From: an uncultured virus (IMG/VR IMGVR_UViG_3300030380_002570)
Taxonomy: Duplodnaviria; Heunggongvirae; Uroviricota; Caudoviricetes
IMG/VR virus record: IMGVR_UViG_3300030380_002570
Length of the DNA stretch: 64,000 nucleotides
Direction: 5' to 3' (one strand)
A program made the translations under genes and the position numbers. Below are positions 2,464 to 62,585 of this stretch, piece by piece. How positions within the stretch are numbered: position 1 is the stretch's first letter; every line of letters starts with the position of its first letter. Below the pieces are notes generated by a model. That model did no database searches. It worked only from the letters and a program-made list of their open reading frames with translations, and was not told where the DNA came from.

Positions 2464-2795
2464 TAACTTTTGCCAAACTTTTGCTTCTGGGACTTTGGTG
2501 GGCTTTTCTTGCTGCCGCCCTTGCCAGACCAAAACATCTTGTTTGCCCAGTATGCGGCTGATGTCTTGCCCTTCTTGATGTTCTTTGCGTGACGAGCCTT
2601 GAAGCTTTTACGCGCTTCTGCTGAGTAGTTGTGACCCATCTTCTGGTCACCGAAGCGGATTATCTTTACCTTACCCGCATCGCGCACAGCAACGACTCCC
2701 TTCTTTGAGGGATGGCTAGGCGTTCTTTTAGGCTTGTTCAGTCCTTGAAGACCGGCCTTCTTCAGCCTGTTCTTCTCCGCGTCCGTCAAGCTCAT
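2463..2795 (-). CDS. Lys-rich protein, DUF5754-like (IRFG...F-x-ARH...AAYW)
   Basis: Motifs recognised; homolog at 61298-61582. Confidence 0.6.
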   Translation of the reverse strand: MSLTDAEKNRLKKAGLQGLNKPKRTPSHPSKKGVVAVRDAGKVKIIRFGDQKMGHNYSAEARKSFKARHAKNIKKGKTSAAYWANKMFWSGKGGSKKSPPKSQKQKFGKS

Positions 2796-3046
2796 TTGCG
2801 ATGCCTCGCTGTTTTCTTGGCAATCTTCTTAGGCTGGCTTGAGTGCTGCTTGCCTTTCTTCGTGTCGGCTCGTTTCTTTCTACTTGTAGCTGCGTACTCC
2901 GCATCTGATAGAGCCGCTCTAGCCTTCTTCGGGAGATACCTTTCACCTGTCGCTTTCTTTCCTTGTGTCGATGGTTTGCCTGACTTGGTTCCCCATTCTT
3001 GCTTTGTCCACTTCTTCAGCGACTTTTGCGACTTCTTGAGAGGCAT
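2792..3046 (-). CDS. Lys-rich protein resembling the C-terminal half of DUF5872 (LKKWTKQEW...RYLP)
   Basis: Motif recognition; loose homolog at 60751-61077. Confidence 0.6.
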   Translation of the reverse strand: MPLKKSQKSLKKWTKQEWGTKSGKPSTQGKKATGERYLPKKARAALSDAEYAATSRKKRADTKKGKQHSSQPKKIAKKTARHRK

Positions 3047-3231
3047 TAGTTCTTGTACCCCCCGCCAGCTTCTTTGTAACGCTTCGCTAGCATCTGAGCT
3101 TTACGAGCCGACCATTGTCCCGGCTTTCCGCCCTTGCCGCTTGCCTTGATAGAGTTAAACAACCTCTTGCGTAAGGCTGGCTTCGTATAGTTGCCAGCCT
3201 CATTTACACGAGACTTCTTCTTTTCAGCCAC
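3046..3231 (-). CDS. Lys-rich protein resembling the N-terminal half of DUF5872 (GGKPGQWSARKAQ...GGGY)
   Basis: Motif recognition; coupled ORF. Confidence 0.6.
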   Translation of the reverse strand: MAEKKKSRVNEAGNYTKPALRKRLFNSIKASGKGGKPGQWSARKAQMLAKRYKEAGGGYKN

Positions 3232-3635
3232 TAGAAGTGCTTCCTTACCTGCATAACGATAACGTACACATTACCCGAACTGGCACTAACAGTAGAGAAC
3301 TGGATGTCTCCAGTAACGCCACTACCAGCGTTGTTAGGTATACCCGTGAAGTCAGTGAAATCAAACGTCCTAGCGTCATCTGCCTTTAGCTGCCAAGCCA
3401 AGACATCACTAGAAGCGTCAAAGAAGATCTTTACGCCCATCCCTACGGTGGTGTATTGGATCTTTTCAATCGATACCTTGGTGCAAGCCGCGCCCGTAAG
3501 GGGGTCAACGGCCAATGCAGAAACATCGATCTTTGTTACTGCCGACTCACCCGTGCCATCACTGACATTTGTGAACCGGAATATCGCAGTACTACCATTG
3601 TCTTGAATGGTTTGTGTTGCTACTGCATCAGCCAT
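3231..3635 (-). CDS. Putative virion beta-sandwich protein (134 aa)
   Basis: RBS aggaggt; homolog at 61595-61999. Confidence 0.65.
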   Translation of the reverse strand: MADAVATQTIQDNGSTAIFRFTNVSDGTGESAVTKIDVSALAVDPLTGAACTKVSIEKIQYTTVGMGVKIFFDASSDVLAWQLKADDARTFDFTDFTGIPNNAGSGVTGDIQFSTVSASSGNVYVIVMQVRKHF

Positions 3636-3647
3636 GACTACCTCCTA

Positions 3648-4169
3648 TTAGGAATCAGCAAACGCTGGAGCATCGGCTCCTTCAGCATAGCCCCAAATGT
3701 ACCAACTCGTTGAGTCTTTGGCGACGATGTTAATCTCGAAGATGCCAAAGTCAGTGAGAGTCAGCTTGCGATTGGAGTTCCCATCTGAGTAAACAGATGT
3801 GTTATCTGCATCTGAATCCAAATGCACAAGACCGCCTTGCAAAAAATTGTCTGTTGATCCGGTGTCGATGATCAGATTCTCTGTTTCTTCAGCCGCGCCA
3901 CCATAGATAAACTTAAAGCTGATACCCGCCGCAGGCGATGGCAACGTTAAAGTTCTATCAGCAGTGACCGCAGGAACAACAACCAATCGGCTTCCGTGAT
4001 CGGCAGCAGAGATATTGTGATCAGCGTCTGTCAGCAGCACTGGGGTTGCTTGCAATCCAGAGCTATCTAGAGTGAAGGAGGTGCTTATTTCTCCAGAAGT
4101 TGCGTCTTTTGAAACAACCTTAAATCCATTTTCGGAGCGGACGGCTCCATTGAAAGTCGTATTACCCAT
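3648..4169 (-). CDS. Putative capsid fibre/decoration protein
   Basis: Directly downstream of the capsid gene; T-L-T-L-P beta motifs; homolog at 62012-62518. Confidence 0.6.
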   Translation of the reverse strand: MGNTTFNGAVRSENGFKVVSKDATSGEISTSFTLDSSGLQATPVLLTDADHNISAADHGSRLVVVPAVTADRTLTLPSPAAGISFKFIYGGAAEETENLIIDTGSTDNFLQGGLVHLDSDADNTSVYSDGNSNRKLTLTDFGIFEINIVAKDSTSWYIWGYAEGADAPAFADS

Positions 4170-4174
4170 TGTAA

Positions 4175-4225
4175 TCTCCTGTCTGGGTTAGTCCTTATGT
4201 TCCACGTGGAACAATCGGTCAGGAA
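4175..4225 (-). promoter_or_regulatory. Putative cis-regulatory RNA sequestering the RBS of the 173-aa gene
   Basis: CCTGAC-hairpin-GAC-TAACCCA-GACAGGAGA conserved with 62524-62568; inner hairpin differs in sequence but still pairs. Confidence 0.5.
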
Positions 4226-4251
4226 AAAGGACGGCCCCCGAAGGGGCCGCC
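4224..4251 (-). terminator. Rho-independent terminator after the major capsid gene
   Basis: GGCGGCCCC-TTCG-GGGGCCGTC hairpin followed by a T tract on the minus strand. Confidence 0.85.
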
Positions 4252-4267
4252 AAACTCTTCCTAGCTA

Positions 4268-5176
4268 TTAGCTAGATCCCGGTGACCCGTAAATTCCGAG
4301 TGGGTCGGAAACGCCAAAACTATATCGCTCTCTGGCTTTATAGCGCACGTTACCAGTATCGAAGTCACCATCCATTGAAGTTTCAAGCGCAGTACGCTCG
4401 AAGTGCTTCATGCCATTTGGCACATCGGTGATCAAGAAGAAAGCGTTGCTGTCAGTCAGGTAATGATTGACTGCATAGCCTTCTGGGATCGCACCCATGT
4501 TGCGGATGGCATTGATGTCGTTGTCGCTGGTCGCAACACGCTGAGTCGTTTCAAGCAGACGATCTGCCGTAAACATCAAAGCGGGTGGTACGATCAAACG
4601 GCGAGGACGCGCTGCAATAAGAAGACCGCGCTCATCGGTGAACGCAGCAATCTCAATGATCGCATTTTCCAGTGACGTTTCGTTCAGGTCAGCACCTGTG
4701 GATGGACGGTTGGAGTTAGTTCCACCGCTTACCAAAGGATGTGAAGCATTGAACAGAGTTACACCGTCTCCAGATTGGAAGCTGGTGAAACCATTGTTCA
4801 GCAAGTTTGCCGCCTTCACTTGCTTCGTGTACGCCATAGCGCGAGAAAGCGCCTTGGTGTAACGAGCAGAAAGTGAATCGTACAAATTGTCTTCCATCGC
4901 TTCCTCGGTGATCGCAAAGCCCATCGAAATGGTCTCGTGATTGTACCGAGCGGTGTAAGACTCTTGAGCGGAGTCGTAGCTGGTAGCCGCGCCTTCTGCT
5001 TTCACAGGGGCAGCAGCGAAGCCAGACAACTTCACTTCTTCCTCGAAAGAACGATCAGAGCTTTCAGTCTCATAAATGAGAGTGTGCTCGTCTTCGTACT
5101 TCTCATACTCCAAACCAAAAAGAGCATTAAGCCCCGGCAGGAGTTCTTTAAGCATTTGCGCTCTTGAGATAGCCAT
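4268..5176 (-). CDS. Major capsid protein (Mu gpT-like)
   Basis: 302 aa; MAISRAQ..KEL.PGLNALFG, LIVPP, RERYSFG motifs; follows scaffold, precedes a terminator. Confidence 0.9.
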   Translation of the reverse strand: MAISRAQMLKELLPGLNALFGLEYEKYEDEHTLIYETESSDRSFEEEVKLSGFAAAPVKAEGAATSYDSAQESYTARYNHETISMGFAITEEAMEDNLYDSLSARYTKALSRAMAYTKQVKAANLLNNGFTSFQSGDGVTLFNASHPLVSGGTNSNRPSTGADLNETSLENAIIEIAAFTDERGLLIAARPRRLIVPPALMFTADRLLETTQRVATSDNDINAIRNMGAIPEGYAVNHYLTDSNAFFLITDVPNGMKHFERTALETSMDGDFDTGNVRYKARERYSFGVSDPLGIYGSPGSS

Positions 5177-5188
5177 TGCCTAAACCTC

Positions 5189-5767
5189 CTATACGCCAGT
5201 GGTGGTAACGTACTGATGACCAACGTTAAATTTAACGATTACATCAGTGAAGCTATCACCAGCCGAACTAGTTGGCCCATCTACAAAATCAATGATTCGT
5301 AGTGGGAGTGTATTTGTTGTTGCAGCAGTGCTTGCGTCAACAGCGTTCTTGCTTCGACCAATAGAGGTAGAGCCAGCGGTTTGAACAATCGCTGTGTTGT
5401 TACCTAGAGTGGTCTGTGCGAGAGACGCATCGCCTTGCATACGCATCAACACGTTGGGGTCATCAACCACATAAGCCACAATGTCACTTGCAGAAGTAGA
5501 CGCTGGGTACTGTTGGTTGAAGGTCTTTTGGTTGGTGCTGGGGTCAGTGTAAGCACAGCCTACAAAAACGCCTACAGGAGTGGCGCTTGTAGTGCCAGTG
5601 TCCTTTTCGACAGTACCATCGTTAACGAGTTTTACGAAATCTCCGTAAAACACGGCGGTGCCATAACCACTTGCAATCTTGATATGACGAATCTTCCCGG
5701 TAAACGAGCCACTCGCACTCAAGGTATCAACTGGTTCCGCACCTGTTGGGGCAGCAGAAGTAGCCAT
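5189..5767 (-). CDS. Putative capsid decoration/minor capsid protein
   Basis: Immediately upstream of the MCP; homolog at 63558-63986. Confidence 0.6.
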   Translation of the reverse strand: MATSAAPTGAEPVDTLSASGSFTGKIRHIKIASGYGTAVFYGDFVKLVNDGTVEKDTGTTSATPVGVFVGCAYTDPSTNQKTFNQQYPASTSASDIVAYVVDDPNVLMRMQGDASLAQTTLGNNTAIVQTAGSTSIGRSKNAVDASTAATTNTLPLRIIDFVDGPTSSAGDSFTDVIVKFNVGHQYVTTTGV

Positions 5768-14882: not shown

Positions 14883-14888
14883 TATAAT
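14883..14888 (+). promoter_or_regulatory. Putative -10 box of the early promoter
   Basis: Perfect TATAAT just before the structured region and the plus-strand operon; no well-spaced consensus -35. Confidence 0.45.
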
Positions 14889-14894
14889 GACCAA

Positions 14895-15295
14895 CGGCGA
14901 CGGGGAGCCGACTCAATCCCGCCCAGCCCCTCACGGGGTGCCTTGAAAGACAGGCTTAAATGAGAGACTACCAGCCGGTCAAAGGTGCTGAGAGCAGGAT
15001 AGGCGAAGTGCTATGCAGATCGTCCCGCAACGGGCATATCGATAGCGAGTTTTTGAGGTCAACTACGAACGGAACGAGGCCAACAATACTAACGAGACCT
15101 GCAACCCCTCACGGGGTTAGAACTAAACTGGTGGTGAAGGCTAGGGTTGAGTGGGAATGAGTGATGCAGATCGAACCGCAACGGGCATATCGGTCACGAC
15201 TTCCCAGCCCGACACCCTGACACCAGCCAACATTCTAGACGTGAGACTTACCAGAGCGCACTGGCAATCGGGCTAGTGCTTTCGAGTAAGTCACA
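14895..15295 (+). ncRNA. Candidate large structured ncRNA (~400 nt) with duplicated modules
   Basis: Nested helices found by eye; GCAGATCG-NN-CCGCAACGGGCATATCG twice; CCCC-TCAC-GGGG hairpin twice; no convincing ORF. Confidence 0.65.
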
Positions 15296-15310
15296 ACCGG
15301 AGAACGTGCT

Positions 15311-15367
15311 ATGGACAATCAAGATCACAAGGATTTTGAGGAATTCATGCGAGAGCAAAACCTTTAA
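15311..15367 (+). CDS. Putative 18-aa peptide MDNQDHKDFEEFMREQNL
   Basis: GGAGAACGTGCT-ATG initiation context nearly identical to that of ardC. Confidence 0.35.
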   Translation: MDNQDHKDFEEFMREQNL

Positions 15368-15397
15368 CCCAACCCCCACGCAAACAGGAGAAAACCA

Positions 15398-15607
15398 ATG
15401 CGTAACTTTTACAACCATACCCCGCTGGAGCAGGCCCGAATGGACGTGCTGCAAGCGATCTCAAACATGGCAAAGGATTACATGTCCCACAACCCTCATG
15501 CCGAGACCGAGGGCTTCAACACTTACAAGCGCAAGCACCTTGCGAAGATGTATTACAAGCTCGCGGAACAGTGGGATCTCGATACCGCTGCCATCTTGGA
15601 AATATAG
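15398..15607 (+). CDS. Hypothetical early protein (69 aa)
   Basis: RBS aggaga; stop codon abuts the hammerhead. Confidence 0.7.
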   Translation: MRNFYNHTPLEQARMDVLQAISNMAKDYMSHNPHAETEGFNTYKRKHLAKMYYKLAEQWDLDTAAILEI

Positions 15608-15669
15608 TCGAAACCGCCTCTGGCGGTCTGCATCGATTGGCCCCGATGCACTGATGATGACAGGCCCAA
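15607..15669 (+). ncRNA. Hammerhead ribozyme, type II
   Basis: gtc-GAA-stem III accgcc/ggcggt-C(15628)-stem I tgcatcg/cgatgca-CTGATGA-t-gac; loop I ttggcc can pair with downstream ggcccaa. Confidence 0.85.
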
Positions 15670-15692
15670 CTTAAACTTTAGGAGAACGTGCA

Positions 15693-16631
15693 ATGCGCGA
15701 TGTATATCAAGAAATCACCGACCGAATCGTGGCTCAGATGGAGTCTGGCGACAGCAACTGGATCAACCCGATGGCAGGCTCTGGCCTTGGCGGAGGCTGG
15801 CCTATGAACGCCACCACCGGCAAACGATACAACGGTATCAACGTGATGCTGCTGATGGGCCTGACGGTATTCAACGGCAAGGAACATGTACCCGCCGCCA
15901 GTCAGCAGTGGGCGACATTCAAGCAGTGGAAGGCCAAGGGCTGCACAGTCGTGAGCGGCAAGGGCAGCGGCAACATGATCGTCTTTTTCGAGAAGCTGGA
16001 GGTGAAGGATCGCAAAGACCCTACCGGCGAAACCAAGATACATATCCCATATTTCAAGGCGTCCTCCGTGTTCTCTGCCGAGCAGGTCGAGGGCGAGTAT
16101 GCCGAGCAGTTCAAGGTCGAGCGTGAGCCGCTGACTGAGGTCGAGCAGATCGCAGCCGTCAACGACTGGGTGACAAGCTACGTCAACGGTACTGATCTCA
16201 CGATCAACTACAACGAGACAGGCCGTGCGTTTTACCGTCCCAGCACCGACTCGATCCACATGCCACCCGCTGATGGATTCGAGGCCACCGCAACGTCAAC
16301 CGCTACCGAGTGTTTCCACTCAACCCAGCTTCACGAGTTGACTCACGCCACTGGTAACAAGGCTCGTCTGAACCGGCTCGACATCAAGAACAACGACGGC
16401 TACGCCTTCGAGGAATTGGTTGCCGAGTTGGGCGCTGCGTTCCAATGCCTGATGCTGGGCGTCAGCGCCGAGCCACGCGAGGATCACGCTAAGTACCTCA
16501 ACAATTGGATCGCCGCGCTGAAGAATGACAAGCGCCTGATCTACCGAGCCGCCAAGCTTGCACAGAAGGCTGTCGATCACATCGCGGAGCACCAACCCTC
16601 CGCTGAACAATCAACTGAAGAGGCCGCCTAG
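15693..16631 (+). CDS. ardC: ArdC-like ssDNA-binding antirestriction protein with zincin-like metallopeptidase domain
   Basis: YQEITD-x-I, NATTGKRYNGIN, WATFKQW, AFY-x-P-x-x-D-x-I, HELTH-x-TG, YAFEELVAELGA. Confidence 0.9.
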   Translation: MRDVYQEITDRIVAQMESGDSNWINPMAGSGLGGGWPMNATTGKRYNGINVMLLMGLTVFNGKEHVPAASQQWATFKQWKAKGCTVVSGKGSGNMIVFFEKLEVKDRKDPTGETKIHIPYFKASSVFSAEQVEGEYAEQFKVEREPLTEVEQIAAVNDWVTSYVNGTDLTINYNETGRAFYRPSTDSIHMPPADGFEATATSTATECFHSTQLHELTHATGNKARLNRLDIKNNDGYAFEELVAELGAAFQCLMLGVSAEPREDHAKYLNNWIAALKNDKRLIYRAAKLAQKAVDHIAEHQPSAEQSTEEAA

Positions 16632-16651
16632 TGCGGCCCGAGGGCATCAAA

Positions 16652-17038
16652 ATGAAAGTACATGTATTCCAATTCAACCTGACAGATATGGAACGGGTAG
16701 AGCTAGAACACCTTGGCTGGGAGGCGACGGATCGCATCAGCCAGTGGGGTGAAAAGCGCCTGCTTCAGATCGCTGGCGACGAGGCGGTGGCAGAGTTCGC
16801 CGCCGCGAACATCGATGAATACGAACTGGTCGTGACCGTCGAAATGCCAGACACCGACGAGTGGACTGCGCTGGAGGTGGCCTACGGTGAGATGAATCAC
16901 TGGGCTAACCCAGACAACATTACCCGTCACCGGATGTGCGCCAGTATGTCTGTCGGTGACATCTGCGAGATCAACGGGCAACTGTTTGTCTGCGCCACAT
17001 TTGGATTCGATAAATTAAATCTAGGAGAGGCCGCATAG
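16652..17038 (+). CDS. YodL-like protein
   Basis: SMSVGDI...F...GF motif; ATG 16652 follows a purine-rich RBS. Confidence 0.6.
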   Translation: MKVHVFQFNLTDMERVELEHLGWEATDRISQWGEKRLLQIAGDEAVAEFAAANIDEYELVVTVEMPDTDEWTALEVAYGEMNHWANPDNITRHRMCASMSVGDICEINGQLFVCATFGFDKLNLGEAA

Positions 17039-17056
17039 CGGCCCAAGGGGATCAAC

Positions 17057-17437
17057 ATGATAGTGAAAGTTGAAACATGGGAAGTGCTGGACGGCGATGA
17101 TCGCCGTAAGTTCAGCAATCGATTCGACGCGCTGCGTTACGGCGTCAGATCGCAGGGCATGGTGGACATCGAACTTTGGTATCACACCGGCAGGCGACTA
17201 GCGAATGGCTTTGCTTACGAGGGTGAGCGCAGCCTTGAGATGGTGGAGTCGGTGACTCTATATGAGAACGCCGATCACCCGTGGCTGCAATTCGGATTCG
17301 ATGGGTGGCTTGATCTGCAAGAGCTTGTTGCCTATGACATTTCTCGCGCCGAGGGCGGACAGTTTGAGCCAGTGTCGTACATGTCATGGGCCGAGAAATT
17401 AATGAATGAATCAGGACTGAAGAGGATCGATTTATGA
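17057..17437 (+). CDS. Hypothetical early protein
   Basis: In operon, RBS aagggg. Confidence 0.65.
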   Translation: MIVKVETWEVLDGDDRRKFSNRFDALRYGVRSQGMVDIELWYHTGRRLANGFAYEGERSLEMVESVTLYENADHPWLQFGFDGWLDLQELVAYDISRAEGGQFEPVSYMSWAEKLMNESGLKRIDL

Positions 17438-17661
17438 ACGCATTGTATACCGACGGCGACGGGCGCTGGCACTCACAGTACATCGCCAAGACCAAGGGCA
17501 TGAGCCTCGACTCATTGCTCCATGTCATGCAGGACTGCGCCGCAGCGATATCTGCTAACCCAGACAATCCTAAGTGTGGGCAGTACGCCGACGAGCGCCA
17601 CTACTGCGCGATGGAATTAGAGCGCCGACGCAAGGCATTCAACGCTAAATTTTCCAACTGA
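17434..17661 (+). CDS. Hypothetical early protein (75 aa)
   Basis: Coupled start; its stop codon lies inside the hammerhead core CTGA. Confidence 0.65.
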   Translation: MNALYTDGDGRWHSQYIAKTKGMSLDSLLHVMQDCAAAISANPDNPKCGQYADERHYCAMELERRRKAFNAKFSN

Positions 17662-17712
17662 TGAGACCAGATGGTGACTGGTCGAAACGCCGCGAGGCGT
17701 CTTGGATAACCA
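17653..17712 (+). ncRNA. Hammerhead ribozyme, type I
   Basis: Stem I tccaa/ttgga, CTGATGA, stem II gaccag/ctggtc, GAA, stem III acgcc-GCGA-ggcgt, GTC cleavage after 17701; loop II tggt pairs with acca 17709-17712. Confidence 0.92.
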
Positions 17713-17773
17713 ACTTCACATCATTCGTGAGTCGTGGTACGCTGCACTCACATTATCAATCAGGAGACGGACT

Positions 17774-18214
17774 ATGAACATCACTGAAGACAACTATTGG
17801 AACAACCGAGGCCGGTATCAGGACAAGGCGGACAAGCTAGAGGCATTGATCCCTCGCATGGGCGAGGTTGAGAACGCCGAGCAGCGACCCGAGCTAGAAA
17901 GATTCCGCGCTGCCGTCAACGCCTATTACGATCTGTTCAACAACGGCGGTTGGAACAGACCATCCGAGATCGCAGACATGTTCTTCCTCAACATCGAAAA
18001 GATCGACGGGAACTACGACGCATCCACATGCCCTCACTGCGGGTGCAGTTGCCCCGATTACGAGGAAGAGGATGACGCCTGCGACGATTACCGCATGCGT
18101 GGCGTACCCGTACCGCCAACCCTTTACACAGACGAGGAGGTGTACGCGAGGACTGAACCCGTCATGTCCGAGATCATTCTCGACGCATACGCAGCGGAGT
18201 TCCCCGATGCCTGA
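17774..18214 (+). CDS. Hypothetical early protein (YYDLFNNGG motif, CxxC)
   Basis: RBS aggaga before ATG 17774. Confidence 0.7.
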   Translation: MNITEDNYWNNRGRYQDKADKLEALIPRMGEVENAEQRPELERFRAAVNAYYDLFNNGGWNRPSEIADMFFLNIEKIDGNYDASTCPHCGCSCPDYEEEDDACDDYRMRGVPVPPTLYTDEEVYARTEPVMSEIILDAYAAEFPDA

Positions 18215-29670: not shown

Positions 29671-32600
29671 TCACCGCAGCCCAGATCCCACATCGAATGC
29701 AGGGATTTCTATCTGCTGCCGCATCATTGGCACAACCTCAAGGTATAGGCGCTTGCGTGTCTGCACCTCCCTGATCCTCTCTTGCTTCTCTTCGGGAGAG
29801 ATATCCATGCGGCGTATCGCCTGCTCTTCCTTTCTGAGACGCGACAAGCCACGCCTGATCTCTGCTTGCTCACGATACATCGGCAGCAGGTACTCTCTAC
29901 CAGCTATGTACCTCTCAGCCTGCTCTGGTCTGTCAACACGCAGCTTTCTGTACGTCTTGTACACTTCGTCCACATAGCCAGCCATGTCGTAGAACTCTTC
30001 GGTTCTCCCTGCGCCAAACTCTCTTGTAAAGAATCGTCGCAGCAATGGGCTGTCGTATATGGGTCGTGCCGGTAGAAGCTTGGTTTTGTCCCCAGTAAGA
30101 GTCTCAGATTTTAACGCCAAGTCAGACAGCGCAAGCACATAGCTACCAATCGTCCCGGTGTACCCCCTGATCAGATGATCCATCTTGATTGGGCTGAGAT
30201 CGAACGGTGCAAACTCTGACGCCAGCTTTGCGACTTCTGAGGTGCTGCTAAGAACCTGAGATTCTCCAGCTAAACCGCTCAAGTATTGAGGGACGATAGA
30301 TCTGCCGGTGAAGCTATTGTAGTTTGCTACTGTCTCAATCAACGGCGCAACTATCTGTGGCCCCGTCACAGGAACTTCCAATGTGCTAACAACAGCCCTT
30401 TGTAGTGACTCACGAGTCTGTCTGCCGGTTGTATCGCCAGTCATCTCGCGCATCATGCGTTCTGGCAGGGTCTTAAACAGCAAGCCAACTTCAAATGGGA
30501 TCGGATATTTCAATGCTGGAATGCCAAACGGCATTGGGATGATCCAGTTGTTGTCTCGCTCTTCTTCCGTTGCCTCTTGATAGTCCTCTGAATCACTCAC
30601 CAGCAGGTAGTACATTGCACTAGATGCAGCGAGAATTCCTGCTCTTGCGATGAACGAGCCTACCGCTTTGCGTCTGCTCAACTCTTTGTTCGAGCTTCTG
30701 ACTCCAGTCGCTGCATTCAACAGAAGATCCAGACCTTGCATCCTTGCATTCAGGAACGGCACCGCCGTAGTCAATAACCGCATCACGGGGTGTGAGCCAC
30801 GGCGACCAAAGTTCATTACCTCTAATGCTTGGAACTCTGCCTCTGCCCTGTCCCCTGTACGGGCCAGCACATCATCATGAACAGCCTTGCGGGTAGCAAA
30901 ATCTGACCTAGTTGTTATATCGCCTAGACCATCCCAGATTCCCATCAGAAGTTTTGTAGTAAGACCTCTGTCATCCTTGATCGCTCCCTGCTTTCGCAGT
31001 TGCGTAGTCATGAACTTGCCTATGTCAGCAGGATCTTTCGAGAAGTCATACCCGCCGACAACGCCAGACCGTTCAAGCTCTGACATGTCTTTCGCAAAAC
31101 CACGGAGAGTGTCTACGATTGGAACGAAGTCAGCGCCAGAAGTCTGATACGCCGACAGCGTATCTCGCATCATGTTAGCAGCAACAAACGGCGGTGCCCT
31201 TGTGACAGTTTCGCGCAAGATGTTTGCAGGAACACCGAAGATGGTGTTGAGGAGGTCGTAGCCAGCGCCACCCTCCATAGGTTGAAGGGACGTAAAGACT
31301 AGCGGATCGTCAATGACAAACTTCCTGTCTTTGCCTTGAACCCTGAAGGTAACAACGTTAAGACCCTTGCCTGACTTGCCCTTTGGCAGTTCGTAAGCGA
31401 GGCCGTAACGTACCATATTCCGTACCACTCGCTGCTGGGCCACGTTGTTCATGCCCATGCTGATTGCGGCAGCCATGTTGGTCGTGATCGCATCAAGCAA
31501 CGGTACGTTGAGCGCGGTATCAGTGCCTGTTATCCCCTTGAAGCTACCTGCTGTGGTCAGGCCGCCGAACATATTGGGTGCATTGGGCACATCCCTGCCC
31601 TCTGCTTGACGATAGAACGGAACGTAGTCTGACTGAGCAGCCCATATCTCTGCCATCTCAGCATCAAGAACGCCTGTGTCCCGCAGGAACTGGATGGTCT
31701 TAGCATTGTATGCCTGCCAAACCTCATACCAATCTTTGATCTCTGGGTGGTTTCGCTCTACATACTGGATGATTTGTAGTTGCTCTTCTGGAGTGCCGGG
31801 AGAATCTATCCCTCGCTTACGCAGCCCCTCTGCCCGTCTTGCAATGGCGTAAGCTTGGGCATCTTTCTCCAGCGAACCCTTGTCGTTGAACAGCAGACCC
31901 ATGACACCCGCCAGTCCCCTGAACTGCACGGTCTCTCCGGGCCTGCTTGAGTCTGCTGAGAAGGTGTGGCTGAAGTCCTCTACCGTGGTACGCCCATCTT
32001 TGTACACGGCGTTACCGTACTTGATCGCAGCACCAGCGATAGCATTAGATCTGTCGGCTGCCATCAGCGCAGGCAGGGCAGCAGAGCTTGCCATGACATC
32101 TCTATCAAGCGTCTTTTCAAGCGCCTCAAACTGTGCGTACCGGAATACCGTTCCTTGCTTCAAGGCAGTAATGAAGTTGCGTATTGGCCCACGCTCAAGA
32201 ACGTTTAGGTATGTCTCGCCGGGAGTGATGTTAGCTGGGTTGGCAACCAGCTTGTCCATTGTCCTCTGCACATCGCCGGGTCTCTCTGGCTCGTTGCCAC
32301 GAGAGAACATGATCTGCTGCTCACGAGATAGCTTCTGCCCCTTATCTGGATCAGCAGCGACAGCCTGTGCGTATGGATCTGCGCTTGGGTTTATCTTTGG
32401 AGCGTAGCCAGAGGCGAAGTCTCTCGCCTTCTCTGCGTTGGCCTCGACGGTAGCCTTTACCTGTCCGTCAGGTATGCGCTTGCGAGCTAGACCTGTATCT
32501 GCTCTGGAAGCTCCGCTTCTTCTTCGGCTGAAAGCTGGCCCTCCAGCTTCTGGTCTGGATACGCTAGCGTAAGATACGTTGTCCTCGTAAGTGGGAGGTT

Positions 32601-35600
32601 GCTCGCCTTCAGATACTGCATCACGGGGTCTATCGGCCCAGTCTGGGTTGGGGATTTGTCCTGCTGACGCATGTAGTAGTACCTCTTGCCTAGCTTTATC
32701 TAAGTCTATCAGTCGTTTGTTGTATTGTCGCCATACGTTATCCACAAACTTAACGTTGTCTTCGTTGTTCTTGTAGCTTGGGCTGAACACCCCACGGACA
32801 GCTTCCCACGTGATCGACTGCATCTCTCTGGCTAATACGCCACGCTCCGCTGCCGCCCTGCGATACGCCTCTTCAAACAGGGAGTAGGTGCCATTGATCC
32901 CGGTAACCTTAGAGCTTGACGCTCCAGTCTTACCTACCACACCACCACCGAAGTTGTGCATGACAGGCTCCGACTTGCCGCTCAAGGGCTGCAACAGACC
33001 TGCCGCTACAGCGTGGGTATCAATCGTGACAAAACCAAGATCCGACTGTGGATCGAAGATGTTGTTGTAGAAATTACGAACCTTGTTCTGGGTGCCCAAG
33101 GATGAGGAGATAACGTCGATGTCGTTTGACCTCAGAGCAATGATCGCCTTGGCGATCTCGTTCATAGACCCCCAGCCAGCGCCTGCGTCTTCGCCCTTGA
33201 CCGTCTTGACGTAGTCCATGATCGTGCCGTCAGGAGATATGATCCTGTGGGCACGGCTGTTGTATGTCTCGTCATACGTCCTGATGTAATACGCAAGCTG
33301 CAAGTTAACCTTGTCTGGATCGCCAGCAAGGATCTCGTTAATGGTCTTGCCATCTATCTCTGGCAGGATCTTGGACGATATAGCCTTGGACTTAGCGGAC
33401 GCATCCTTCTTGAGATACAGACGCTTTGCAGTGTCCATCATCTCACCGTTGAACGGGGTGTCTGCCTGCTCGAAGAATATGTCTGCGGTGCGCTCACCCA
33501 AAGACGCATTCATGTACCAGTCTTTCTGGGGTGACAGGTTAGCTAGCACGGCGGAAGCCTGCTCCAAGCTTATGTTGTGCTTGCTTGCCATTCGCTGGGC
33601 TAGCTTGTTTGCGCCCTCATACCAGAGCTTGGATGTCTCCCTGATAGATGGATCAACCATGTCGTAGATGTACAGCAGATTATCCTTCACTGCCTCGACA
33701 AAGCTTTCTGCCTTCTGCTCATCGGTTCTAAGAGCGCGATCCTTCCGCAGGATTGGGTATATGCTGGCGTCCTTGATCAGTGCCATGTTCTTTGTGAACA
33801 CTGGCTTGTCGCCTGTGAACGCCTGATAGTCGTTGACTAGCAGATCATCTAGCGGATCTTCTGTTCTTCGCACAGCAGTTGGGAATCGTGTGCTTACCTG
33901 ACCCTTCGCTTTGCGAGAGAACACTGGCCCTGTGTAGTCCCTGTCCTTGAGAACGGGCTTCGTATCGAACATAGGGATGCCGTCTTCCGTAAACCCATAC
34001 AAGTCAAACGGTATGGTCTTAGGAAACTTTAGTTGAAGGCTCTCAAGCGCCGCTGCTTTTTCATCAGGATCGTAGACCGAACTCCTACTGACAATACCTA
34101 CAAAACCCCCATCATCTTCTTTGTACAGGGCGCTCGGTCTTGCGTCTGACTCACCAAATCTCAACTCACCAGCCCCACCTCCTACAGATGTCAGGGTCAC
34201 TGGCATCAGCGTGTCGCCATAGCCCTGCGAGGCATAGTATCTGGCTCGATGTCTGCCCTCGTGCCCAGTAATGCTGGCAGCGCCACGCTCATTGGCGGTG
34301 AACTGTAGGAAGTTTGGTTGAAACTTCTGCCCCGCAGCAGCCATTGCATCAACGCGCTCAGTTTTAGATCGGTCTACGCCTGTAGCTGCAAGCTTTAGAA
34401 ACTCATTCGGGGTCATCATGGTCACAGTTGATCGTGACGATGGGTCTACAGCGTCCCTGAACTGGTAGTCAACCCTCTCTGGGTCTAAGAACTGCTGCGT
34501 TATTGGCGACGAATCCATCAACTCTCTGACCTGTGAGGTCTTGATGTCGCGCCCTCTTGAGAAGACAGGCTGTTCAATGAAGTCAGCCATCCTTGGGCCG
34601 CCTTGCTTACCAACCCTCGACGGATCATCTTCAGCGCCTGCTGTAGGCAGAACCTGACTAGGTGCAGTGGCAGATACCCCAGCTTCTCGCTCGGTAAATT
34701 GGAGCGTGCGGACTTCATCTCTTGGCCTAGATCCAACTCGACCAGATGAGATGTCATCGATGATGCCCTCAAATGATCTGAATCCAGAGCCATCAAGAGC
34801 ATTCTTCATTGCTGACATAAAGCGTGTAGCTCGACGCAGCAGGTTAGCAGGCTTGCCTGACACCAAGCTTGGGTTTGCCCGCTGATCCCGCACCATCTCA
34901 GCGACAGCTTCTTCCATCTGCTGAACTGGATTAAGCTGAGGATACCCTTTAGCAGCCCACTCGGTATATGTTTGGTTGCCTTTCTTCAGCACCCCGGCCC
35001 TGCCACTAAGGATCTTCCATTCGCTCTTTGTGAACAGATCCATCGTCCGCATGGCATGAATCATCTCGTGATTCAGGACATCAGCTAGCCGAGCTTCTAT
35101 CTGCTGATCCGTAAGCGCGGGATCATTAGCCACTGCATCAATAGACAAGAAGATCTGATTCATTTCAGGGAGGTAGTACCCTTCTGTAACCTGATCCTCT
35201 TGAGCATCAGGATCTACAACGTCATCCCTGACGAACCGCTGCGAACCCATAGTCCCGCCTACAACAAGCTCTGGATCTACCTGTTCGCCCTTTCTTCTTT
35301 TCCTGATGCCATATACTAGGTTGCCGCCTGCGTCCCTTAGAACGTTCCTGAGGGCGTGTGAGACGTTTACTGGCACATCCCCTACGTTCATGCCCTGCAT
35401 CTGCTTGGCTAACGCAGACTCGAACTGCTGAATCTCTATGTCTTGACGCTGATCTATGGATGGGCCTTCCAGCAACAGAGGCTCTTGCTCTGTCTTGGTA
35501 ATGCCCTGCGCCTTTGCGTCTTCGAGCAGGCTATCGAGTGCAGTAGGAGACACATCTCCGTCAATCTGAAAGTCACCGATAGCTTCGGCTAACTGCGCTG

Positions 35601-37881
35601 GCCCCATGTCTGGGTTTTCTTTGAGTGCCGCTACCGCCCTTCTAAATTGATCACCCGTGTATGGCTTGAGCTTGAATACTGGCAGCACAGTAGGGCTGTC
35701 AAAACGCGGGAGAGAGCGCATTTTCTGCGCGAACATTTTGAACTCGCCATCTGACATCTCACTTAGAGGTGTTCCGGGCGCAACCCCAGCAAACCTCTCC
35801 GCCAAGTACTGTAGCTCTGGCGAATCGATAGGAGAGATTATGTTCTTTGCATCTAGAATGTTCTGCAAGAACTGCCGTGCAGGGAACTTGTCTCGGTATA
35901 CAGACTCATCAACTCGACCAATGCCTGTGTTTGCATTTAGCTGATTGGCAAAAGCTTGAGCCTCTCCAGCATCACGCCCGAACCTCCTGATTCTAGGCAT
36001 GTTTTTCTTGTCAGCGCCTGTCTCAAGATACTCTTGCTTTTCTTTGTAGTTCAGCTTCCTGCCACGGATTACTTCGCCAGCACTACTGACAACAACAAAG
36101 TCTGGCACCGTAGCGTTCTTCTTCCTTCGATCTTCAACCCGATAGCTTTCGGTCTCGACCAGACCGTTCAGCCTTGTGTCAACGATGTTAGGGAACTTGT
36201 CGCCAAGCTCTTCTTTGACTTCCTCCAATGTGAAGTTGTTTGATAGCGGTAAGCCCTGCTCCATGCGCCTGCGATTGATCCGCTGCGATGCAGTCATCCT
36301 AGCTTCTGGGCGCACACCATTTGCAACGTCACGGATGATGGAGGCTGTGTCTTCGCCCTCGTAAAACCCACGGTCAACAGTAGTTTCTGCGGCAGCGTCT
36401 ACAGATGGCCCGATGAACGTCATCTGATCAGGGTCATTAGCAGCAATGTTGTATCGCCTTAGCGTCTTCTTCTGCTGCTCGTCGTAAACGTTTGGAGATG
36501 ACTCGACTAAAGCTTCGCCAGCATCGTATACGTTGCTCAACTCTACCTGTCGATTGAGAGCGCCAGCTAGTGCAGCAGCATCGCTACGACTCTCAACTGG
36601 CTGGCTGTATGCATAGCCCTCTGCGTCAACAACAGAGAAGCTGTCGCCATTATCTTGTATGGAGAAGGTGTTTCTTTTTGACGGGAACGCTCGTCCCATC
36701 TGGCGTGATATCTCAAGAGCCGTCTCATCAACAGTGCCTCTTGGCTTTATAGTCGATGCCCTGTCTCGTGCGGCGGCAGATACGTCAGCCTCTATATCAA
36801 CGTCTCGTCGGCCTTCTAACTGCTGCTGCGCTTCCATATCAGCAGCGATCTCATTTATCAGGGCGGCACCACGCTCCATGTCAAGATCTGCGGAAAGATC
36901 AGCGTCTTGCTGCGCTATCAAGTCTTCTCGTTCTTTAATCTTCGCCTGCTCTTTTTCCAGAGCAGAGTCATAGTTGGCCTTGTTTCTGCGACCAGCAATG
37001 GCGTTAACAACTAGGTCTGCACCGGCACCAACAGCGCCACCAACAGTGAACTCATCGTATAGTGTTGGCCCAAGTAACTCGGCGTCCTCGTTGTATACGC
37101 CTTTCTCAATGGCATTCTGCGCGATACTAGCCAAGACTTCTTGAGTAGCCTCGACGCCGCCGGTTCTCAGGGCAGAGTTTAAGACCTCTCTGTATCCCTT
37201 AGGCAGCTTGATGTTTCCCTTAGCGTCAATCCTCTTGAGCAGTCTTGTTGGAGCAGCTAGTTCACTGAGTCCGACAATGCCGCTAAGAATAGCAGCGGTG
37301 TCTTCTTGATCTTCTGAGACATCAATGCCTCTTGCTCTTGCAGCTTCTACCTGCTGCATCTGTGTGCCCGTGCCAGAGCCAACAGCTAAAGTTCCCGTAG
37401 CACCAGCCCCAAGAATCTTTGCGCCCTTGCCTGCCAAGCCTGCCAAACGTAACGCTGCTGCCGGGGTAAAGAACGTGGCAAACGAACCGATACCTTCACC
37501 GAACTTGGTGATCCATGTGTCTCGGTAGGCTTCATCAGCCCCAAGGTATTCGTCTATTGCCTGTCTGCCTTCGCGTGAGGCCGCTACAAGGGCGTTCTCA
37601 TCGCCATCGTCTATGACATCCTCGAATCCAGCGAGGTTTGTGGCGGCGTCAGATAGCTCTCCAACGCCCTCTCCAGCAGAGACAAAGGTGTTACCGAACC
37701 CACGACCAATAGCTTTACCGAACTCAAAGGTTTGACCGCTAATCGTGCGCTCATCTGCGAACTGATCTTCAACAACGTCCTCGACACCCAATACGCGCTT
37801 TACTGTGCCCTGTATAACTGATGGGTCTGTTCCATCAGGGAACTCCAGTATCCTGCCGTCAGGCAGTTGAGCCTCTATCAT
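29671..37881 (-). CDS. Giant polyvalent internal virion/ejection protein (metallopeptidase HEMIH, ParB-like GHEGRHR, glycosylase-like TIDTHA, C-terminal LPD38-like)
   Basis: 2736-aa ORF at the end of the ejection gene cluster; motifs read from the translation. Confidence 0.75.
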   Translation of the reverse strand: MIEAQLPDGRILEFPDGTDPSVIQGTVKRVLGVEDVVEDQFADERTISGQTFEFGKAIGRGFGNTFVSAGEGVGELSDAATNLAGFEDVIDDGDENALVAASREGRQAIDEYLGADEAYRDTWITKFGEGIGSFATFFTPAAALRLAGLAGKGAKILGAGATGTLAVGSGTGTQMQQVEAARARGIDVSEDQEDTAAILSGIVGLSELAAPTRLLKRIDAKGNIKLPKGYREVLNSALRTGGVEATQEVLASIAQNAIEKGVYNEDAELLGPTLYDEFTVGGAVGAGADLVVNAIAGRRNKANYDSALEKEQAKIKEREDLIAQQDADLSADLDMERGAALINEIAADMEAQQQLEGRRDVDIEADVSAAARDRASTIKPRGTVDETALEISRQMGRAFPSKRNTFSIQDNGDSFSVVDAEGYAYSQPVESRSDAAALAGALNRQVELSNVYDAGEALVESSPNVYDEQQKKTLRRYNIAANDPDQMTFIGPSVDAAAETTVDRGFYEGEDTASIIRDVANGVRPEARMTASQRINRRRMEQGLPLSNNFTLEEVKEELGDKFPNIVDTRLNGLVETESYRVEDRRKKNATVPDFVVVSSAGEVIRGRKLNYKEKQEYLETGADKKNMPRIRRFGRDAGEAQAFANQLNANTGIGRVDESVYRDKFPARQFLQNILDAKNIISPIDSPELQYLAERFAGVAPGTPLSEMSDGEFKMFAQKMRSLPRFDSPTVLPVFKLKPYTGDQFRRAVAALKENPDMGPAQLAEAIGDFQIDGDVSPTALDSLLEDAKAQGITKTEQEPLLLEGPSIDQRQDIEIQQFESALAKQMQGMNVGDVPVNVSHALRNVLRDAGGNLVYGIRKRRKGEQVDPELVVGGTMGSQRFVRDDVVDPDAQEDQVTEGYYLPEMNQIFLSIDAVANDPALTDQQIEARLADVLNHEMIHAMRTMDLFTKSEWKILSGRAGVLKKGNQTYTEWAAKGYPQLNPVQQMEEAVAEMVRDQRANPSLVSGKPANLLRRATRFMSAMKNALDGSGFRSFEGIIDDISSGRVGSRPRDEVRTLQFTEREAGVSATAPSQVLPTAGAEDDPSRVGKQGGPRMADFIEQPVFSRGRDIKTSQVRELMDSSPITQQFLDPERVDYQFRDAVDPSSRSTVTMMTPNEFLKLAATGVDRSKTERVDAMAAAGQKFQPNFLQFTANERGAASITGHEGRHRARYYASQGYGDTLMPVTLTSVGGGAGELRFGESDARPSALYKEDDGGFVGIVSRSSVYDPDEKAAALESLQLKFPKTIPFDLYGFTEDGIPMFDTKPVLKDRDYTGPVFSRKAKGQVSTRFPTAVRRTEDPLDDLLVNDYQAFTGDKPVFTKNMALIKDASIYPILRKDRALRTDEQKAESFVEAVKDNLLYIYDMVDPSIRETSKLWYEGANKLAQRMASKHNISLEQASAVLANLSPQKDWYMNASLGERTADIFFEQADTPFNGEMMDTAKRLYLKKDASAKSKAISSKILPEIDGKTINEILAGDPDKVNLQLAYYIRTYDETYNSRAHRIISPDGTIMDYVKTVKGEDAGAGWGSMNEIAKAIIALRSNDIDVISSSLGTQNKVRNFYNNIFDPQSDLGFVTIDTHAVAAGLLQPLSGKSEPVMHNFGGGVVGKTGASSSKVTGINGTYSLFEEAYRRAAAERGVLAREMQSITWEAVRGVFSPSYKNNEDNVKFVDNVWRQYNKRLIDLDKARQEVLLHASAGQIPNPDWADRPRDAVSEGEQPPTYEDNVSYASVSRPEAGGPAFSRRRSGASRADTGLARKRIPDGQVKATVEANAEKARDFASGYAPKINPSADPYAQAVAADPDKGQKLSREQQIMFSRGNEPERPGDVQRTMDKLVANPANITPGETYLNVLERGPIRNFITALKQGTVFRYAQFEALEKTLDRDVMASSAALPALMAADRSNAIAGAAIKYGNAVYKDGRTTVEDFSHTFSADSSRPGETVQFRGLAGVMGLLFNDKGSLEKDAQAYAIARRAEGLRKRGIDSPGTPEEQLQIIQYVERNHPEIKDWYEVWQAYNAKTIQFLRDTGVLDAEMAEIWAAQSDYVPFYRQAEGRDVPNAPNMFGGLTTAGSFKGITGTDTALNVPLLDAITTNMAAAISMGMNNVAQQRVVRNMVRYGLAYELPKGKSGKGLNVVTFRVQGKDRKFVIDDPLVFTSLQPMEGGAGYDLLNTIFGVPANILRETVTRAPPFVAANMMRDTLSAYQTSGADFVPIVDTLRGFAKDMSELERSGVVGGYDFSKDPADIGKFMTTQLRKQGAIKDDRGLTTKLLMGIWDGLGDITTRSDFATRKAVHDDVLARTGDRAEAEFQALEVMNFGRRGSHPVMRLLTTAVPFLNARMQGLDLLLNAATGVRSSNKELSRRKAVGSFIARAGILAASSAMYYLLVSDSEDYQEATEEERDNNWIIPMPFGIPALKYPIPFEVGLLFKTLPERMMREMTGDTTGRQTRESLQRAVVSTLEVPVTGPQIVAPLIETVANYNSFTGRSIVPQYLSGLAGESQVLSSTSEVAKLASEFAPFDLSPIKMDHLIRGYTGTIGSYVLALSDLALKSETLTGDKTKLLPARPIYDSPLLRRFFTREFGAGRTEEFYDMAGYVDEVYKTYRKLRVDRPEQAERYIAGREYLLPMYREQAEIRRGLSRLRKEEQAIRRMDISPEEKQERIREVQTRKRLYLEVVPMMRQQIEIPAFDVGSGLR
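32487..32672 (-). CDS. Nested out-of-frame small protein (61 aa) inside the giant ORF
   Basis: AAGAGGT SD 8 nt upstream of ATG; amphipathic sequence DPVMQYLK..LPLTR..YL.LAYP..LSAEEEAELP. Confidence 0.6.
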   Translation of the reverse strand: MRQQDKSPTQTGPIDPVMQYLKASNLPLTRTTYLTLAYPDQKLEGQLSAEEEAELPEQIQV

Positions 37882-57265: not shown

Positions 57266-57275
57266 GTACTAAGTA

Positions 57276-57707
57276 CTAGGCTATTCGGATAATGGCGTTA
57301 GACGCATCCGCAGTAGGGAACTGAATAGTAAAGTCACCCGCTGTTGAAGTCTTGTCACCACCAAAATCCAATGCACAAACAGCAGGGTCGCCTGATGCGG
57401 AATCATTAAAAATGAGCGCACCCCTAGCCGTGACTGTCGCATTCGAGAACGTAAGATCGGCAAAGTCTGTCAGGGCAGTCGTGCCCGATGAAGACGGGTC
57501 TACGCGGGTTAAGGACGCGCCCTTTGCCGTGTAGTTTGTTCCAGACACTTCGTTAGATGTCGTGTATGCGGTAGTGCCTGCGCCCAAAGAAGCACTGCTT
57601 GTGTACAGTGCCAAGTTGAACGTGCTTCCGCCTGAGTTTAGAAAATTATGTTTTGCTTCCAAAAGCTCTTTCTTGAAAGACGTACACATTGCTGTCGTAA
57701 TAGCCAT
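57276..57707 (-). CDS. Virion structural protein, copy B of 3-434
   Basis: Only two substitutions seen versus copy A. Confidence 0.75.
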   Translation of the reverse strand: MAITTAMCTSFKKELLEAKHNFLNSGGSTFNLALYTSSASLGAGTTAYTTSNEVSGTNYTAKGASLTRVDPSSSGTTALTDFADLTFSNATVTARGALIFNDSASGDPAVCALDFGGDKTSTAGDFTIQFPTADASNAIIRIA

Positions 57708-58000
57708 TATAGACTCCTTATGATGTTCGCCATATCAGCATGGCCTTGGTTTTCAAATTCAGCGGCAAGAGTAACCCTGTCACTACGAATCGCCTCTTTG
57801 ACGTAAAATAAAACTGTTGCCCTAACAGCCCTTTTGAATTCGTTTGCTTGTTCCGCAATCAAAGGATGACAGTTTCCGCCTACGCTAACAATCCTATCCG
57901 CCGCTGCATCAGACCAAAACTCTGGGTCATGGCCTTTGTGATCGGTGGTGGAGACTAAAACATTACCAACCTCAGATTGAGGCGCTTCAAAAAATGACAA
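57707..58000 (-). CDS. Homolog of 434-724
   Basis: Near-identical C-terminal half. Confidence 0.75.
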   Translation of the reverse strand: MSFFEAPQSEVGNVLVSTTDHKGHDPEFWSDAAADRIVSVGGNCHPLIAEQANEFKRAVRATVLFYVKEAIRSDRVTLAAEFENQGHADMANIIRSL

Positions 58001-62011: not shown

Positions 62012-62518
62012 TTACTGGTCAGCAAATTCAGGTGCAGTTGCGCTCGTAACATTGCCAAAGATTTGGTAGTTAGTGGTGTTCAAGCCAACAATAGTGACCT
62101 CGCAACCAGCAGGAACGTTCATCTTAAAGCTGCTGTTTGAGTTTCCATCAGAAAACACTGAGCTAACTTCGTTGTCGGTATCAAGGAATGTAACGCCGCC
62201 AATGTAAAAATTACTGTTGCCGGGAGTGAGAATGATCGCGTCTGTAGCATCAGCAGCGCCACCAGCATAAACAAACTTAAACACAGACCCTGCAACAGGC
62301 GCAGGAAGCGTGTAGGTGTTGTCTTGCCCGCCGTCTGGAATAAGAAGAACTCTTCCACTGTGCGTTGCGTTGGTTAGAGTTACGTCTCCGTCAGAAAGGC
62401 TTACCGGACCGTCACCCAAAGTGGCAACCTCGGTAAGTGCTCCGGTCGTAGCATTTTTGCTTACGGTTTTGAAGGTGCTTTCAGATCGCACCGCACCTGA
62501 GAAAGTAGTAGTACCCAT
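62012..62518 (-). CDS. Capsid fibre/decoration, homolog of 3648-4169
   Basis: MG-x-TTF-x-GAVRSE; RBS spacing favours ATG 62518. Confidence 0.65.
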   Translation of the reverse strand: MGTTTFSGAVRSESTFKTVSKNATTGALTEVATLGDGPVSLSDGDVTLTNATHSGRVLLIPDGGQDNTYTLPAPVAGSVFKFVYAGGAADATDAIILTPGNSNFYIGGVTFLDTDNEVSSVFSDGNSNSSFKMNVPAGCEVTIVGLNTTNYQIFGNVTSATAPEFADQ

Positions 62519-62585
62519 GTTCATCTCCTGTCGTGGGTTATGTCAGCCACACCATGCGGCTGTCAGGGATGCTTTTAGCATACAC

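Follow-up and report, generated by a model that had tools for sequence, protein, structure and literature searches.

Hammerhead ribozyme motifs at both ends of an ardC cassette, and a conserved leader RNA before it, in the DNA of an uncultured marine phage

Why a short block of four genes led by the anti-restriction gene ardC should be bounded at either end by a self-cleaving ribozyme motif is the question raised by positions 14,895 to 17,712 of the DNA of an uncultured tailed phage (IMG/VR record IMGVR_UViG_3300030380_002570; 64,000 nucleotides (nt), here called the window). An initial annotation, made from the sequence alone, had proposed that two hammerhead ribozymes on the same strand cut after 15628 and 17701, each at the stop codon of a gene, and that a single transcript is thereby divided into three RNAs. 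Both ribozymes are borne out by the present analysis. The first, HH1, is a type II hammerhead located before ardC that matches its Rfam family at 42.0 bits, and the second, HH2, is a type I hammerhead located after the block, with a complete core; the predicted fragment sizes of ~735 nt and 2,073 nt also fit. The division into three RNAs is favoured by motif and family evidence, cleavage itself being a prediction, and is of a kind already published. The best explanation, to which we give a probability of roughly two in three, is that the operon RNA would cut itself at HH1 and HH2 into three RNAs and so insulate the ardC cassette.

HH1 is predicted to cut after C15628, the C17 of the ribozyme and the last base of a GUC triplet at 15626-15628. 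Its core comprises CUGAUGA at 15651-15657 and GAAA at 15610-15613, and the three stems are a stem I hairpin (15629-15650), a stem III hairpin (15613-15627) and stem II, formed by a 5' strand at 15607-15609 and a 3' strand at 15659-15661, which is the open stem of the three-way junction. A pseudoknot is possible between GGCC in loop I (15639-15642) and GGCC in the tail (15663-15666), and the lowest-energy fold predicted for the isolated element is the three-way junction. The TAG stop codon (15605-15607) of a 69-aa (amino acid) open reading frame (ORF) overlaps HH1 at its 5' end, in stem II. HH1 is found ~30 nt 5' of ardC in seven of the eight closest viral contigs at the Rfam gathering score, and in the eighth (L007) by our own hammerhead descriptor, in which the core words and three stems are required, giving eight of eight in total. 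In relatives of HH1 at two further loci, L090 and L057, stems I and III have been altered in a compensatory manner, and one copy from L057 has the pseudoknot changed on both sides, to GCCC and GGGC. The L057 locus contains four type II hammerheads within 2.7 kilobases (kb; 2628-5274) around one ardC, three of which exceed the Rfam gathering score.

In HH2 the core is likewise complete, with CUGAUGA at 17658-17664, GAAA at 17684-17687 and GUC at 17699-17701, and cleavage is predicted after C17701. Its stems are of 5, 6 and 5 base pairs (bp); stems II and III are closed and stem I is open. An extra pairing joins UGGU of loop II to ACCA of the tail and is replaced by GGG and CCC at locus L061. 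Folding of HH2 alone again gives the three-way junction as the minimum-energy structure. The TGA stop codon of a 75-aa ORF (17659-17661) sits within the CUGAUGA core. HH2 is present in all five close relatives that extend that far. Copies of the HH2 family at L016, L061, L066 (two), L094, L095 (two), L168 and L212 differ in stems I-III and yet stay paired, a compensation read from a family listing whose members were chosen by a descriptor requiring short stems. Besides a complete core, each of the two has the tertiary pseudoknot that characterises fast natural hammerheads. Perreault et al. (2011; PMC3088659) showed fast cleavage to require this pseudoknot, and type II forms normally to have a very short stem II.

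The gene that lies between the two ribozymes encodes a protein whose domains place it, as predicted from its sequence, among the ArdC anti-restriction proteins. It matches Pfam ArdcN (5.7e-26), Pfam MPTase-PolyVal (4.8e-35) and PHROG 7245, 'anti-restriction protein' (9.4e-71), and the H, E and H residues of its HExxH motif are invariant in 14 aligned ArdC homologues.

Hammerheads are concentrated at the borders of viral ardC genes. Applied to both strands of the 64 kb, the descriptor returned HH1 and HH2 and nothing else. In the best 80 of 115 viral ArdC-encoding relatives (435 kb), many of which are close kin, it gave 42 matches on the ArdC strand and one on the opposite strand. One long-looped match was removed, leaving 41 to be counted for proximity to ardC, and 31 of these lie no more than 300 nt from the ArdC ORF, a zone that makes up 12% of the flanking DNA. 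A hammerhead is found within this distance at 28 of the 80 loci, and in 9 of 37 clusters when the ArdC proteins are grouped at 70% identity. Upstream hammerheads occur at 14 of the 76 loci having enough upstream DNA, downstream hammerheads at 17 of 74, and three loci have them on both sides; all three hammerhead topologies are represented. Shuffled loci (435 kb) gave one match. Among 80 terminase loci (445 kb) there were ten matches, none of them beside the terminase gene; nine lie upstream on the opposite strand, which is the position of the ardC operon relative to the terminase genes in the window.

The structured RNA that the initial annotation had placed 5' of HH1 is real and conserved. 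A scan for the invariant 5' words of this leader gave 32 places in viral contigs, 23 of which were judged by eye to be leaders, in 18 distinct versions, and nine to be unrelated. The RNAalifold consensus of 12 distinct versions (alignment A3) has 63 pairs in 15 helices, with compensatory changes in 33 of the 63 pairs. In this consensus 95.2% of the cells are paired, compared with 33.8-39.0% when the 3' partners are slid by 1-3 columns, and the covariation score is 0.454, a value reached by 0 of 500 column shuffles, compared with 0.033-0.066 for the slid pairings. The two halves of the leader share a repeated hairpin module, and most of the hairpins are capped by GNRA-type loops. In the window's copy, 10 of the 15 consensus helices are fully retained, and the stretch 14923-14964 has a form of its own. 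Because the single-sequence fold is not more stable than that of shuffled sequences (z -0.55), the structure is evident only by comparison.

We conclude that the leader forms a family of structured RNAs not represented in Rfam 15. Searched against Rfam 15 at E<=5, 14893-15300 gave no match, and a search of 12 leader-variant loci at E<=1 found only hammerheads and two isolated weak matches, of which one, inside the L385 leader, was to the model of a group II intron domain (E 0.42; 22.2 bits, cut-off 49) and the other, in L364, to a snoRNA model. Neither a tRNA nor a tmRNA was found in the leader by ARAGORN, and the idea that it might be boxB-like or tRNA-like was dropped by eye, the loops being ordinary GNRA-type caps and the 5' hairpin unlike a T arm. 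With a model of the 3' domain (R1), the leader was recovered solely from L090, L095 and the close group of the window; the model's weak partial matches (E ~0.007-0.02) were to one hairpin sub-motif, in the first half of the leader and in L094. The hairpin that follows the leader core (Table 1) is kept even in the one sequence of alignment A1 (six sequences) that has a different downstream gene.

A terminator separating these elements was looked for on the plus strand across 14895-17712; the terminator scan found no terminator-like site there, which makes a single transcript plausible. Transcription would start at about 14893, where conservation begins in alignment A1 and upstream of which the DNA of the relatives differs. 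The operon RNA would then contain, in order, the folded leader of ~340 nt, two small ORFs, the four-gene block led by ardC, and further genes. Hammerhead cleavage leaves 5'-hydroxyl (5'-OH) and 2',3'-cyclic phosphate ends, which RtcB joins. With no host enzyme needed, HH1 would cut after C15628 and HH2 after C17701, in the course of transcription, and three products would result. The first would be a leader piece of ~735 nt with a terminal hairpin and a 2',3'-cyclic phosphate at its 3' end. The second would be the 2,073-nt messenger RNA (mRNA) of the ardC cassette, its 5'-OH lying within a 7-bp hairpin and its 3' end carrying two hairpins and a cyclic phosphate. The third would be a 5'-OH mRNA for the following genes. 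The likely benefit is insulation, in which the expression of ardC would become independent of the leader and of other upstream RNA, and each piece would have a stability of its own, with its ends protected by hairpins. We infer the transcription start, the cleavage and all effects on stability or expression from the DNA.

Several observations weigh against this reading. HH2 scores below the gathering score of its family (30.8 bits, the threshold being 34; E 6.8e-5 when 3.4 kb was scanned), its model being short and the longer loops of this copy lowering the score. HH1 has an extra U at 15658, between the core and stem II; the same extra U recurs in five other hammerheads of types I and II at four loci (L066, L069 (two), L076 and L161), and is absent from the close HH1 relatives in L090 and L057. 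Orthologues of HH1 and HH2 are nearly identical and so inform the pairing little, for which reason covariation was drawn from paralogous members, picked by a descriptor in which pairing is required. At E<=0.05, Rfam confirmed 6 of 19 descriptor matches at 12 distant loci. No credible hammerhead was found in 80 bacterial loci encoding ArdC homologues (35-44% identity, 426 kb), where the single descriptor match, with a span of 159 nt and on the strand opposite ArdC, was counted as false; this contrast with the viral loci is not a clean test, since the two sets differ in taxonomy. A promoter scan called no promoter at 14883, the site of a candidate -10 box, and no -35 box there fits the consensus. 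All 20 sequencing runs listed with the region are metagenome DNA (18 marine and 2 cave) and none is RNA. Both ribozymes overlap stop codons, at which terminating ribosomes could hinder their folding.

Table 1. Features in and around the ardC operon (positions are those of the window).
Feature	Position	Strand	Basis and remarks
Small and large terminase genes	14589-12158	minus	Profile matches
TATAAT, candidate -10 box	14883-14888	+	Read from sequence; just 5' of where leader conservation begins
Conserved structured leader RNA; two related sub-domains, GNRA-type capped hairpins	14893-15237	+	Comparative alignment
Hairpin between leader core and first start codon	15245-15292	+	Nearly invariant in the six A1 sequences; minimum-energy fold
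18-codon mini-ORF	15311-15367	+	Conserved in five relatives, differences mostly synonymous
69-aa ORF, no known family	15398-15607	+	Stop TAG overlaps start of HH1
HH1, type II hammerhead	15606-15669	+	Rfam Hammerhead_II RF02276, 42.0 bits against a gathering score of 37 (whole-window and local scans)
ardC, 312 aa; N domain binding single-stranded DNA, and zincin metallopeptidase with HExxH	15693-16631	+	Pfam, PHROG
GC-rich hairpin with the ardC stop codon in its loop and a ribosome-binding site after it	16622-16638	+	Second copy at 17029-17043
128-aa ORF, no family	16652-17038	+	Missing or replaced in L001-L004, L006 and in contigs of other samples
126-aa ORF, no family	17057-17437	+	ORF list, profile searches
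75-aa ORF, no family	17434-17661	+	Stop TGA inside HH2 core
HH2, type I hammerhead	17652-17707, tail to 17714	+	Rfam Hammerhead_1 RF00163, 30.8 bits
First gene beyond the second cut, 146 aa, no family	17774-18214	+	ORF list, profile searches

The frequent company of the leader and a hammerhead raises the possibility that the leader is the main product. HH1 would then serve chiefly to free it as a stable stand-alone RNA, directed at a host polymerase, nuclease or defence target, and the processing of ardC would be a by-product; we regard this as possible but doubtful. It draws on the covariation of the leader, and on the presence of a hammerhead on the same strand 190-1230 nt past the leader start in 14 of the 18 distinct versions, in all three topologies; three of the other four versions are cut off by contig ends. 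At L380, which is of a different lineage, the leader is followed by a type III hammerhead and then by ardC, so that the order leader, hammerhead, ardC is kept while the topology changes. Here no ORF lies between leader and hammerhead, and the same is true of L382 and L384. In the window, however, two ORFs intervene between the leader and the cut, and hammerheads adjoin ardC in eight further ArdC clusters where the leader model found no leader in the DNA that was fetched. One leader variant (L392, and the shorter L366) has no descriptor hammerhead in the following 1.5 kb, and may use a variant core or another element instead. Release of the leader is compatible with the self-cutting of the operon RNA into insulated pieces, and both can be true. 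We advance only tentatively the broader proposal that the leader is a new class of structured phage RNA, released by HH1 with a cyclic-phosphate end and acting in trans early in infection, while the hammerhead pair bounds a mobile cassette.

In L362 and its near-identical copies an ORF resembling, by eye, the 75-aa ORF and then a type I hammerhead of the HH2 family stand directly behind the leader, which suggests that this ORF and the ribozyme overlapping its stop codon travel together.

Comparison with related marine contigs shows that the hammerhead-bounded block is missing or has been moved as a unit. Homology with the relatives breaks at 15605 and 17714, which are the outer edges of the two ribozymes. 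The 69-aa ORF is absent before HH1 in L005-L007, where the stop codon of the mini-ORF abuts HH1, and in L006 it is located after HH2; in L001-L004 an insertion directly follows 17714. Contigs from four other marine samples, matched at 85% likeness, repeat these forms, with a joint from 15364 to 15605 and loose ends at 17714, and in three contigs of other samples the 69-aa ORF again lies after HH2. In two runs from two studies the whole block is gone, with ~35 other letters in its place (15590 to 17773 and 15592 to 17756); the shorter sides of these joints are of 169 and 30 letters, respectively, and short-sided joints in metagenomes can stem from other organisms. Two of these forms were seen independently in IMG/VR contigs. 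The base composition of the cassette does not stand out and gives no foreign mark.

These breaks, together with the block-less and rearranged contigs, would fit hammerheads that act mainly as DNA, as conserved recombination linkers at the borders of the cassette whose cleavage has little effect on expression. So would an HH2-like sequence (81% identity) that lies, at L015, upstream of an ArdC of only 47% identity. As the principal role of the two elements this is nevertheless unlikely. Linkers need no catalytic core, cleavage triplet or pseudoknot, yet in many lineages compensatory changes have preserved all three, and the coding strand has every descriptor match but one. A role as DNA linkers and a role as RNA do not exclude each other.

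The stop codons within HH1 and HH2 could also make cleavage conditional, with translation of the preceding ORF setting how often each ribozyme folds. Besides the TAG in stem II of HH1 and the TGA in the core of HH2, many hammerheads of the family have a TAG, TAA or TGA triplet 0-10 nt before them or inside them, in a family listing that takes triplets irrespective of frame. Tight packing of phage genes explains such overlap with no need for regulation, and we hold conditional cleavage to be quite improbable.

That an RtcB-type ligase of the host closes the excised 2,073-nt RNA into a circular mRNA, as the initial annotation had suggested, is very improbable: although hammerhead ends are RtcB substrates and both ends of the cassette carry hairpins, HH1 is of type II and HH2 of type I, so that cleavage does not recreate one ribozyme holding the two ends, as happens in viroids and retrozymes, and the best end-to-end duplex (-26.7 kcal/mol) is at chance level when compared with shuffles (-28.5 +/- 4.0 kcal/mol; z +0.44), 66% of which do as well. 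Spliced and circular products of such arrangements were considered by Perreault et al. (PMC3088659), who report having detected none. The cassette does resemble the circles of viroids, satellite RNAs and retrozymes (PMC4918200, PMC7761336) in having hammerhead cuts at both ends and ends that tRNA ligase or RtcB can join. The viroid-type units, however, are short, for the most part non-coding RNAs with paired ends and one and the same ribozyme at either end, whereas here there are two different ribozymes, a 2-kb mRNA of four genes, and end pairing at chance.

The closest published counterpart is in the same study (PMC3088659), in which multiple prophage hammerheads are reported often to flank single genes or short blocks, implying the processing of long transcripts. 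A triple hammerhead around an Agrobacterium anti-restriction gene called 'ardA' cleaves in vitro and in E. coli, and three Legionella strains have a hammerhead immediately upstream of ardA. The window shares with that example hammerheads of mixed type on the same strand of one phage operon, bracketing an anti-restriction block; a type II ribozyme with a pseudoknot from loop I to the tail; and an interpretation in which mRNA processing is proposed and circles are considered. It differs in that the gene is ardC and the phage an uncultured marine one known from sequence, whereas the published case is a bench-tested Agrobacterium prophage. The hammerhead pair is thus a further instance of a published arrangement, and its interpretation was largely anticipated in print. 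Literature searches found no paper linking hammerheads and ArdC by name. Beyond what was found described, there and elsewhere, are the uncatalogued leader that is conserved 5' of HH1, the measured concentration of hammerheads at the borders of viral ardC genes, and the variation among relatives, in which the bounded cassette can be present, absent or relocated.

Two better known systems offer functional parallels. The early transcript of phage T7 is cut between genes by host RNase III, and the mRNA of the anti-restriction gene 0.3 (Ocr) is among the products. The two cases are alike in that a long early transcript would be cut into hairpin-ended mRNAs whose first products are anti-restriction proteins; T7 relies on a host enzyme and double-stranded sites, whereas the RNA described here would cut itself, leaving 5'-OH and cyclic-phosphate ends, and there is no kinship of sequence or structure. 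RiboJ is an engineered hammerhead derived from a satellite RNA which, placed in the 5' untranslated region, removes variable upstream RNA and leaves a 5' hairpin. HH1 would similarly uncouple expression from the upstream context and leave a hairpin at the new 5' end; unlike RiboJ it is a natural element, and it has a partner ribozyme at the far end of the block. RAGATH motifs are structured RNAs found near genes associated with hammerhead and twister ribozymes (see PMC11061315). The leader resembles them in being a conserved structured RNA that accompanies hammerheads in phage DNA, but it matches no RAGATH or other Rfam 15 family and no TnpB-like gene adjoins it.

Phage genomes contain thousands of hammerheads whose purpose has been an open question since 2011, and this locus offers a compact test case. 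It belongs to an ardC family in which all three topologies occur in marine phages and none was found in the bacterial homologue loci examined, it has natural variants with and without the bounded cassette, and it has a covarying leader that HH1 would release. If cutting proves necessary for fast expression of ArdC, early anti-defence mRNAs would be shaped independently of the host, and the success of synthetic ribozyme insulators would be explained as well. If instead the leader acts alone, it would represent a new class of phage RNA, and if neither holds, the locus would be one more instance of the published type.

The operon lies in phage DNA, as profile searches of the window reveal terminase, capsid, adaptor, polyvalent-protein and recombination genes. 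It begins immediately to the right of the terminase genes, from which it diverges on the plus strand, and contains ardC, a SprT-like gene and a JmjC-domain gene, with genes for single-strand annealing and nuclease proteins further downstream; its expression early in infection is suggested by this gene order and layout. Among named terminases the nearest is from Pelagibacter phage HTVC027P (55% identity), and in the two nearest annotated terminase relatives the gene layout differs from that of the window. Isolated phages gave three weak matches to the region, all inside ardC, and the nearest virus record (G001) gave no match to it. A possible internal promoter at 15579-15608 (a 9-of-12 match) was discounted, the region having fewer such matches than shuffled sequences (2 compared with 6.2).

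Within the cassette, one ORF had been called yodL-like; a Pfam search allowing E up to 5 gave no YodL match for any ORF of the cassette. Neither of the two GC-rich hairpins (Table 1) has a T run, and the first was not reported by the terminator scan; a similar hairpin follows ardC at L380 (~1884-1901). Such stop-codon hairpins could be linkers that couple translation or stabilise the mRNA. Indels in the relatives fall at these hairpins. The ribosome-binding site and the spacer leading to the ATG are nearly identical for the mini-ORF (15296-15313) and ardC (15678-15695), as though one translation-initiation module had been duplicated. A further hairpin at 17728-17752, between HH2 and the next gene, was found in a local fold and also has no T run; the relatives diverge slightly upstream of it, at 17714.

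Positions 1-697 of the window show an 89.8% match to 57274-57970, and Mu-gpT-like capsid genes occur twice, at 4268-5176 and 62639-63544. The window seems to consist of a genome of ~57.3 kb and, after it, the beginning of a second copy that is related but not identical, through either a two-strain assembly or a tandem arrangement. Directly downstream of the second capsid gene is a Mu-gpT-DE RNA (RF03012; 62516-62568, minus strand; 72.3 bits against a cut-off of 49), which overlaps the start of an ORF at 62012-62524; the Rfam scan reported no such match beside the first capsid gene. A 2,736-aa ORF at 29671-37881 on the minus strand, with LPD38 and DUF7178 domains, encodes a large protein of the polyvalent type.

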